A DNA stretch of 64,000 nt from Escherichia phage EC.P1. Position 1 is the first letter of the stretch, and each line of letters begins with the position of its first letter. The stretch lies in the sequence record PQ657772.1; one strand, 5' to 3'. Positions 56,679 to 57,312 of this stretch are shown here, piece after piece. The translations under genes and the position numbers were made by a program. A model generated the notes under the pieces. The model worked only from the letters and a program-made list of their open reading frames with translations. It was not told the origin of the DNA and made no database searches.

Positions 56679-57312
56679 TAGATATTCCTCAATGGTTAAT
56701 CATCCATCTCTTCGAGATGTCTGTTCGCTTCTAATACTACGTATTCTACGCGAATGAATCATAACTGTCAAGGACTTTTAATATTGACGGGATTTGAGGA
56801 AGGGATTTTTCTTCCCCCCGCACGGAGGGAAATTTGACGCTGATGGTATCAGAGCTATTGCATTGAAGATTACTCATAACGAGTGCGAAAGCGGGTCATC
56901 CTGTTTCTCTCTACTTCAGTTTCATATGACGGTCTACACTTTTAAACATAGTGTATCTTCATTAAGTATCTATGCAATCAAATACTTAATGTGAGTACTC
57001 AAATTTTGGACGCAACTTTCCTGTACAAAATTCGATAACTCTCCCTTAGATAATTCGTAAGGTGTTATCCTTATATGTCTATCGAGGAACCACCAGCTAT
57101 CCTAACGTGGTTCTTTATACAGCCGCATTGCCGTGAGGGGTTCAAACTATGCCCACATCTAACGGGTTTCTTTTGCTGTTCGCTACAATGAAAAGCTCAT
57201 CTATCCTTTACATTTTCAAGTGAAGTAGGGGAAGATTGTCAGTACCAGTACTGTCATTGTGATTGTACATAGATCATTGTATCACCATTAATAAATTTGT
57301 CCCATAAAAAAA

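Follow-up and report, generated by a model that had tools for sequence, protein, structure and literature searches.

In the 64,000-nucleotide (nt) stretch of Escherichia phage EC.P1 that was analysed here (sequence record PQ657772.1; 'the window'), a gap of 660 nt on the minus strand (56679–57338) separates the coding sequence (CDS) of a sigma factor (57339..58307, minus strand) from the next minus-strand open reading frame (ORF; 56469..56678, 69 amino acids (aa)). The initial annotation had drawn attention to some 520 bp of this gap that held no ORF of 60 aa or more on the transcribed strand, and had suggested a structured RNA, a decayed gene or a regulatory region. The absence of such ORFs was borne out for the minus strand of the entire gap, where the longest ORFs are 43, 34, 24 and 20 aa; the sole ORF above 60 aa lies on the opposite strand (66 aa, TTG start, 56794..56994). 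The gap is one of the ten longest ORF-free minus-strand stretches in the window. The longer ones are probably occupied for the most part by plus-strand genes, with the exception of 10575–11995, which is largely without ORFs on both strands. The sigma-gene terminator and the promoter of the next gene were both found where they had previously been placed, and between them lies what is very probably the gene of a structured RNA, preceded by a predicted promoter of its own. The features of the gap are:

57306..57331, minus strand: intrinsic terminator of the sigma-factor gene, GGGTTGAC-TTCG-GTCAGCC followed by T7, with a TTGACT −35 element inside the stem
57276..57303, minus strand: predicted promoter of the RNA, with a −35-like GGGACA (57303–57298), a 16-nt spacer and an extended −10 element TGaTACAAT (57284–57276)
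56784..57270, minus strand: structured RNA of ∼487 nt, delimited by an nhmmer profile match (57240–56768), alignments and covariation
56743..56771, minus strand: promoter of the downstream gene, a near-consensus sigma-70-type TTGACA-17-TAGAAT that abuts the RNA and is not part of it

Evidence for the RNA comes from the pattern of base changes among its homologues. RNAalifold predicted 59 pairs from 26 distinct copies, 31 of which showed compensatory double changes. A structure model was built manually from alignments, and its pairs were counted on MAFFT alignments that had not been fitted to any structure; as a control, every 3′ partner was slid by 1–3 columns. With 41 sequences, the 111 pairs of the model were 84.2% paired, compared with 37–44% for the slid partners. 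Double changes occurred in 78 pairs (∼31 when slid) and the covariation score was 0.372 (0.07–0.09 when slid). A second set of 57 sequences, clustered at 96% identity (pairwise identity 50–91%, median 62%; 21 clusters at 75%), gave 89.0% pairing over 90 pairs (39–45% when slid), double changes in 67 pairs (28–38) and a covariation score of 0.466 (0.08–0.11). Helices P2, P3, P4, P13 and P14 and two of the pseudoknots (PK2 and PK3) were 99.6–100% paired, each with several pair types. The structured RNA proposed by the initial annotation is thus supported helix by helix in both sets of sequences.

The changes also reveal which strand is constrained. In the well-aligned helices we counted 238 G·U pairs against 73 A·C pairs, and almost all changes in hairpin P17 are C to U opposite a G, producing G·U pairs. 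Therefore, the constraint acts on the minus-strand transcript rather than on duplex DNA or an antisense RNA. The window copy itself folds with a minimum free energy z-score of −2.48 relative to shuffled sequences. Approximately 100 nt are invariant in the family, many of them in unpaired junctions. Selection on the minus strand maintains ∼17 helices and three pseudoknots across the family. The invariant junction residues together with the three pseudoknots suggest a core with a precise three-dimensional shape, comparable to the cores of ribozymes and of the scaffolds of ribonucleoproteins (RNPs).

The elements of the RNA in the window copy, from 5′ to 3′, are:

57254..57260, minus strand: 5′ strand of pseudoknot PK1, ACAAUGA in the leader, which pairs with UCAUUGU (57191–57185) in the loop of P2
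57240..57253, minus strand: 5′ hairpin CAGUAC-UG-GUACUG, variable in sequence and length between copies
57201..57228, minus strand: hairpin P1 (CUA…UAG, UC/GA, CUU/AAG) with conserved loop GAAAAUGUA
57182..57196, minus strand: hairpin P2 (GCU…AGC), whose loop forms PK1; 100% paired, with UA, AU or CG as the middle pair
57119..57179, minus strand: domain P3–P5 (ACAGC/GCUGU, CCGU/ACGG, GA/UC, and GGG/CCC with loop CAUAGUUUGAA)
57087..57113, minus strand: hairpin P6 (GAACCAC…GUGGUUC), compensatory changes in seven of seven pairs
57073..57083, minus strand: invariant unpaired segment GAUAGACAUAU, identical in 57 of 57 sequences
57058..57073, minus strand: hairpin P8 (UAAGG…CCUUA), elsewhere UAGG/CCUA, UGAG/CUCA or UUGAG/CUCAA
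57041..57047, minus strand: unpaired AAGGGAG, near-invariant in the 57-sequence alignment (AAGGGA invariant)
57002..57032, minus strand: hairpin P9 (AAUUUUG…CAAAAUU, loop UACAGGAAAGUUGCGUC), 77–87% paired
56961..56990, minus strand: hairpin P11 (AUUAAGUAU…AUACUUAAU), 84–92% paired, compensatory changes in nine of nine pairs
56936..56954, minus strand: hairpin P12 (ACAC…GUGU), CGAG/CUCG or GUAG/CUAC in other copies
56926..56930, minus strand: 5′ strand of PK2, GUCAU within a conserved GACCGU…, which pairs with AUGAC (56899–56895) in the loop of P14
56864..56918, minus strand: domain P13–P15, UGAAG/CUUCA enclosing GAGAG/CUUUC (loop AAACAGGAUGACCCG) and ACUC/GAGU
56858..56863, minus strand: 3′ strand of PK3, AUGCAA, which pairs with UUGCAU (56977–56972) in the P11 loop; 100% paired in the 57 sequences, compensatory changes in six of six pairs
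56812..56831, minus strand: hairpin P17 (UUCCCUCC-GUGC-GGGGGGAA) with an invariant G run
56784..56796, minus strand: conserved 3′ tail CAAAUCCCGUCAA, family consensus CAAAUCUCGUCAG

In other copies PK1 is formed by CUGUUUGA/UCAAGCAG or CUGAAUGA/UCAUUCAG; it was 66–74% paired in the MAFFT alignments, with double changes in 5–6 of its seven pairs. The 5′ hairpin gave five covarying pairs in a scan of 26 sequences; it was poorly aligned, and 37% paired, in the 41-sequence alignment. The P1 helices were 91–97% paired in the 41 sequences and 86–96% in the 57, with CUA/UAG replaced by CUG/CAG. The P3–P5 domain holds the near-invariant segments GAAACCCG and CGGCAAUGCGGC. P3 was 100% paired with compensatory changes in four of its five pairs, and in P4 CCGU/ACGG changes to CCGA/UCGG. 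Likewise, four to five of the five pairs in P13 and P14 showed compensatory changes, and PK2, at 100% pairing, changes from GUCAU/AUGAC to GUUGU/ACAAC or GUUGC/GCAAC. P9 is a movable module, which in other copies is found inside P15 or at both places. This is the behaviour that would be expected of a peripheral element making a tertiary contact. No pairing partner was established for the conserved 3′ tail. The long-range GAC/GTC (GAC/GUC) and UGA/UCA pairs predicted by RNAalifold were rejected as they rest on invariant columns only, and a brute-force covariation scan proved too noisy for direct use because it counted G·U changes as covariation.

The putative promoter of the RNA scored 9 out of 12 in a consensus scan, with the TG of the extended −10, and the pattern TGGGACA-N15-19-TAYAAT occurs once in the window, at this position. 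All homologues, including the bacterial ones described below, have TGGGACA or TGAAAC at the same place, followed after ∼17 nt by TGnTATAAT, and we read this conserved motif as a sigma-70-type extended −10 promoter. In phage CBB the TGAAAC form has been described as a 'divergent RpoD-like' promoter (PMC5259590). A Citrobacter copy (L074; homologous loci are denoted by L numbers) carries two tandem TGAAAC-N17-TGGTATAAT promoters upstream of the RNA (3400–3545). From its match to the consensus, the window promoter would direct host RNA polymerase to start at ∼57270, ∼7 nt after the −10 element, which we take as the likely 5′ end. The 3′ end was set where conservation in the family stops, at …CAAAUCCCGUCAA.

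A separate promoter for the next gene follows the RNA in most family members. The regulatory region that was among the original suggestions holds only insofar as the gap has a promoter at each end. Most members are followed by a conserved downstream module, consisting of a hairpin with a CGAAG or CGUAG loop, then GAAAAT(T/C)CTTGAC (an UP-like element plus the −35) and then a hairpin in the promoter spacer. The module lies at 56743–56783 in the window and at ∼1990–2060 in L004; it was also seen in L006, L031, L084 and L100 and in the bacterial loci L073 and L087. The bacterial copies have a diverged form, AAATTCCTGG. The RNA and the downstream promoter module may travel together as one cassette.

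The window is 97–99% identical to the Asteriusvirus-type Escherichia coli jumbo phages WPEC3, fEgEco12 and vB_Ec-M-J (350–385 kb), and ∼450 nt of the gap is conserved at 88–99% identity throughout Asteriusvirus. More distant copies, at 64–75% identity, were found in Mimasvirus (CBB, GAP32, XbC2), Eneladusvirus (BF, fHe-Yen9-04, pEa_SNUABM), Munch-like Salmonella and Klebsiella phages and others. In total the family comprises at least 85 distinct homologues, from Rak2-like jumbo phages (3–5 divergent copies per genome), metagenomes and nine bacterial contigs. BLAST found it in 60 phage records, all of jumbo phages, at 2–5 separate places in each; among the matches listed, out of 69 matching records, the isolated phages carrying the RNA were jumbo phages only, and no plasmid matched. 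Exact-pattern scans of IMG/VR together with nhmmer gave five full-length loci in Yersinia phage fHe-Yen9-04 and at least three full-length copies each in CBB, GAP32 and 121Q; the window holds a single copy. The hosts of the carrier phages include E. coli, Salmonella, Yersinia, Serratia and Erwinia.

Each phage copy lies in an unannotated gap of ∼650 nt or beneath spurious short 'hypothetical proteins'. Thus, of the jumbo-phage genomes that have been deposited, more than 60 very probably have RNA genes in their 'empty' gaps, and the short 'hypothetical proteins' annotated over them are probably artefacts. The genes flanking the phage copies are unrelated from locus to locus. In phage Munch the genes downstream of the RNA are on the other strand, and synteny with the sigma-factor gene was rejected for this phage as the upstream protein is unrelated.

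To look for the RNA in bacteria and metagenomes, we used a gapped pattern of two invariant motifs followed by nhmmer. The pattern matched nine bacterial contigs and 64 metagenome loci, nearly all of them full-length by nhmmer. The bacterial carriers are Citrobacter amalonaticus, Enterobacter chinensis, Silvania, Buttiauxella, two Serratia, two Enterobacteriaceae metagenome-assembled genomes (MAGs) and a 'Clostridium' contig. The last of these (L078; DPOH01000171.1, 'Clostridium sp.' MAG, 2.8 kb) has an RNA and upstream region that look near-identical by eye to the corresponding parts of the Enterobacter and Buttiauxella elements, and was probably mis-binned in the Clostridium MAG. Each enterobacterial integrative element has one copy. 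In most bacterial contigs an integrase is followed on the same strand by the RNA and then by a converging CI-type repressor gene (HTH_3 and Peptidase_S24 domains). The upstream gene is a serine recombinase in five contigs (large in four, a truncated remnant in L075) and a tyrosine integrase in two, and the CI-type repressor is present in five. The interval between integrase and repressor is the usual seat of lysogen-expressed accessory functions in temperate elements. In L074 the start of the integrase ORF is ∼40 nt from a pilin ORF of the flanking chromosome. This points to an element boundary, and hence an att site, that is upstream of int and not within the RNA.

Among 5,426 complete E. coli genomes the RNA was found in two, unannotated in both. 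In strain LR-29-1 (L144; NZ_AP027515.1 3469971–3488553) it lies at 9001–9583 of the locus, in a 1.4-kb unannotated gap within an island of ∼10 kb beside ffs, the gene of the signal recognition particle RNA. Also encoded in this island are a disrupted tyrosine integrase, a number of hypothetical proteins and PDC-M45, a candidate defence system with dual-OB, DUF488 and DUF4326 proteins. No protein common to the bacterial and phage neighbourhoods was found. The same RNA cassette, promoter included, has moved between virulent and temperate elements. The promoter of the RNA, the multi-copy family and its reach into bacterial integrative elements are additions to what the initial annotation had described.

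The RNA was compared with known families. Across the whole window, Rfam 15 gave no match at the gathering score; at E ≤ 10, the region 56500–57500 gave only chance small nucleolar RNA and terminator-like matches of 17–18 bits, and in 13 phage and nine bacterial loci no Rfam match overlapped the element. ARAGORN found no tRNA or transfer-messenger RNA (tmRNA) gene in the window or in 23 homologous loci, and no cloverleaf or tRNA-like domain in the RNA. That no group I intron or tRNA could be recognized by eye was thus confirmed by both types of scan. For a group I intron there was no RF00028 match at E ≤ 10, and the element, situated between a terminator and a promoter, starts at a predicted promoter of its own and has unrelated flanks at each locus. 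RNase P RNA was rejected as no model matched at E ≤ 10 and a CR-I of the GAGGAAAGUCC type was absent by eye. Although the RNA resembles group I introns, RNase P RNA and tmRNA in its length, pseudoknotted core, invariant junctions and movable peripheral hairpins, it differs from all three in matching no model, interrupting no gene and having a promoter of its own.

No covariance model of ROOL, GOLLD, OLE, raiA or HEARO matched the element. ROOL (RF03087) and GOLLD (RF01998) are RNAs of several hundred nt with many helices, pseudoknots and conserved unpaired nucleotides, encoded by phages and prophages without an associated protein or known function (PMC5737381, PMC12286853). The new RNA is similar in exceeding 400 nt, in its many covarying helices and pseudoknots and in being encoded by phages and prophages. 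However, it does not match their models even at E ≤ 10 and is not beside tRNA genes. It occurs in Enterobacterales and their jumbo phages, whereas ROOL and GOLLD have Firmicutes hosts or come from lake metagenomes, and, unlike them, it is present as 3–5 divergent copies per phage genome, each with a putative sigma-70 promoter. A further comparison is ncRNA002 of Pseudomonas jumbo phage PA5oct, an RNA of 451 nt, defined by RNA-seq, that makes up ∼5% of phage reads in early and mid-infection (PMC7318152). It is likewise ORF-free and of the ∼450-nt class, although no structure is reported for it. PA5oct is a distant relative of the Rak2-like group, and ncRNA002 shows that jumbo phages of this kind make abundant long non-coding RNAs. 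Homology between the two was rejected as the invariant motifs of the family are absent from ncRNA002 by eye and nhmmer gave no match at E ≤ 1e-3.

A literature search, which left most subscription-journal papers outside its reach, found no description of the RNA or its invariant motifs, and the genome papers of fEgEco12 (PMC13070987) and CBB (PMC5259590) do not mention it. The family is apparently previously undescribed; it is of a known general kind, the large ornate phage-borne RNA, and is unrelated in sequence and fold to known examples. Large intricately folded RNAs are rare, and the handful known are mostly ribozymes, RNP cores or unexplained 'ornate' RNAs of organisms that are hard to handle. 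A multi-copy pseudoknotted RNA of ∼490 nt without known relative was unexpected in E. coli phages and enterobacterial chromosomes and is directly testable: since the family is found in enterobacterial phages and in the chromosomes of E. coli, Citrobacter and Enterobacter, its function can be tested with standard genetics.

In our reading, the gap holds an independent gene whose product is a highly structured non-coding RNA of ∼490 nt that would act in trans, perhaps in phage–host conflict, and we put the probability of this reading as a whole at roughly 0.7. Host RNA polymerase would transcribe the RNA from its own extended −10 promoter, and the folded RNA would then act in trans as a protein-binding scaffold, a decoy or a ribozyme, serving phage–host or phage–phage conflict. 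Action in trans is somewhat favoured, because the flanking genes differ at every locus, there is no shared protein partner and most copies precede a separate promoter. A function in conflict is suggested more tentatively, on the basis of the genomic addresses of the RNA: the early region of virulent jumbo phages, the int–cI interval (the 'moron' position) and a defence island. More speculatively, and doubtful at present, the family may represent an unrecognized class of large functional RNA, a ribozyme or RNP core, common to virulent jumbo phages and the temperate and integrative elements of Enterobacterales. Such an RNA would be directly active in infection, neutralizing host defence or excluding rival phages, and the 3–5 diverged paralogues of each jumbo-phage genome would have different specificities.

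Several observations weigh against this interpretation. The case for conflict consists of genomic address and nothing else, and the transcription start is placed by a consensus match. No canonical terminator was found after the RNA in the window, which makes its 3′ end tentative. The phage copies are mostly co-oriented with their downstream genes, which leaves room for read-through or a role in cis. About half of the family has a terminator-like hairpin followed by U6–U8 between the first CGUCAG and P17; carriers include L007, L016, L023, L029, L035, L048, L061, L062, L068 and L074, and the window copy lacks it. Transcription must pass this internal hairpin at least part of the time because P17, which lies behind it, is still under selection at the RNA level. 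Two proposed helices also failed: a 6-bp helix closing the 5′ and 3′ ends (GAUGAG/CUCGUC) varies at two positions without compensation, and hairpin P16 (GAUAC/GCGUC) was only 28% paired in the 41 sequences. Finally, the pair counts come from related sequences, so the shuffle controls, in which none of 500 shuffles reached the values observed with 41 sequences, overstate the significance, and sliding the partners gives a fairer control.

The chief alternative is a cis-acting leader, in which the nascent RNA modifies the polymerase for processive antitermination, as with HK022 put or Bacillus EAR, or controls read-through, which in temperate elements would run antisense into cI. The missing terminator, the co-orientation of most phage copies and the internal hairpin that has to be passed in many copies with P17 still selected behind it would all fit such a leader, as would the direction of the bacterial RNA, which points at the converging cI gene. 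The RNA also resembles put and EAR in being structured, promoter-proximal and ahead of genes, with terminators to be passed. However, those elements are simpler and act only in cis, and known antitermination RNAs measure 70–130 nt, far smaller than an RNA of ∼490 nt with three pseudoknots. Moreover, most copies have a separate strong promoter between the RNA and the next gene, and the downstream genes are unrelated between loci, and in phage Munch on the other strand. We therefore regard a leader as unlikely. An RNA-only cage or scaffold, homo- or hetero-oligomeric like ROOL and GOLLD, with the paralogues supplying dosage or different subunits, would by analogy suit the size, ornateness, phage and prophage address and several copies per genome, and the shifting peripheral hairpin is what a module for tertiary or intermolecular contacts would be expected to show. 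ROOL, GOLLD and OLE do form RNA-only oligomeric complexes (PMC12286853), but the family shares neither the ROOL/GOLLD models nor nearby tRNA genes and no conserved self-complementary loop was identified, which makes such an assembly improbable as well.

The remaining explanations dispense with a functional RNA. An element acting as DNA, such as a recombination site, a packaging signal or an R-loop origin, might explain why phages with T4-related replication systems have several copies in each genome, all of them with a promoter, and why the bacterial copies adjoin integrase genes. The T4 origins oriF and oriG are replication origins with an R-loop-forming promoter transcript. This explanation is very unlikely, since only one strand keeps its Watson–Crick and G·U pairs through the compensatory changes, long-range pseudoknots covary, the integrases are of two unrelated types with none next to the RNA in jumbo phages, and the L074 att site appears to be outside the RNA. 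Least credible of all is coding sequence, either decayed, as the initial annotation had allowed, or in the form of short real ORFs. Some depositors did call short CDSs (three to four 'hypothetical proteins' under a match in some GenBank records), and the window has its 43-aa minus-strand and 66-aa plus-strand ORFs. However, no ORF is conserved: across 41 copies the longest ORFs on both strands differ in frame, start, position and length. The indels are not multiples of three, and conservation and variation follow the helices rather than codons.

Other features of the window were noted around the RNA and elsewhere. Two short ORFs separate the RNA from an HNH endonuclease gene further downstream (55449–56333, minus strand). 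More distant relatives lack the endonuclease gene at this position, so it has the appearance of an independent insertion and not of a partner of the RNA.

The terminator behind the sigma-factor gene is one of at least nine copies in the window of a repeated hairpin unit, AAAGGGTTGACTTCGGTCAGCCCTTTTTGCTATAAT, that combines a terminator with a promoter, the stem holding the TTGACT −35 and a TATAAT following the T-run. The hairpins lie on the minus strand at about 57331–57306, 49231–49183, 45621–45591, 44833–44805, 42758–42728, 42074–42047, 37457–37424, 36868–36841 and 2423–2396, and the copy behind the sigma-factor gene has a degenerate −10. These units resemble the 'promoter early stem-loop' repeats of T4-type phages.

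The interval 10684–11995 (1.3 kb), in which both strands lack ORFs of 60 aa or more, is no copy of the RNA family; it may be an origin, a terminus or a region with a regulatory role. The palindrome CAGTACTG is abundant in this interval, which also contains short tandem repeats, with periods of 16–32 at 10787–10879 and of 10–22 at 11802–11872.

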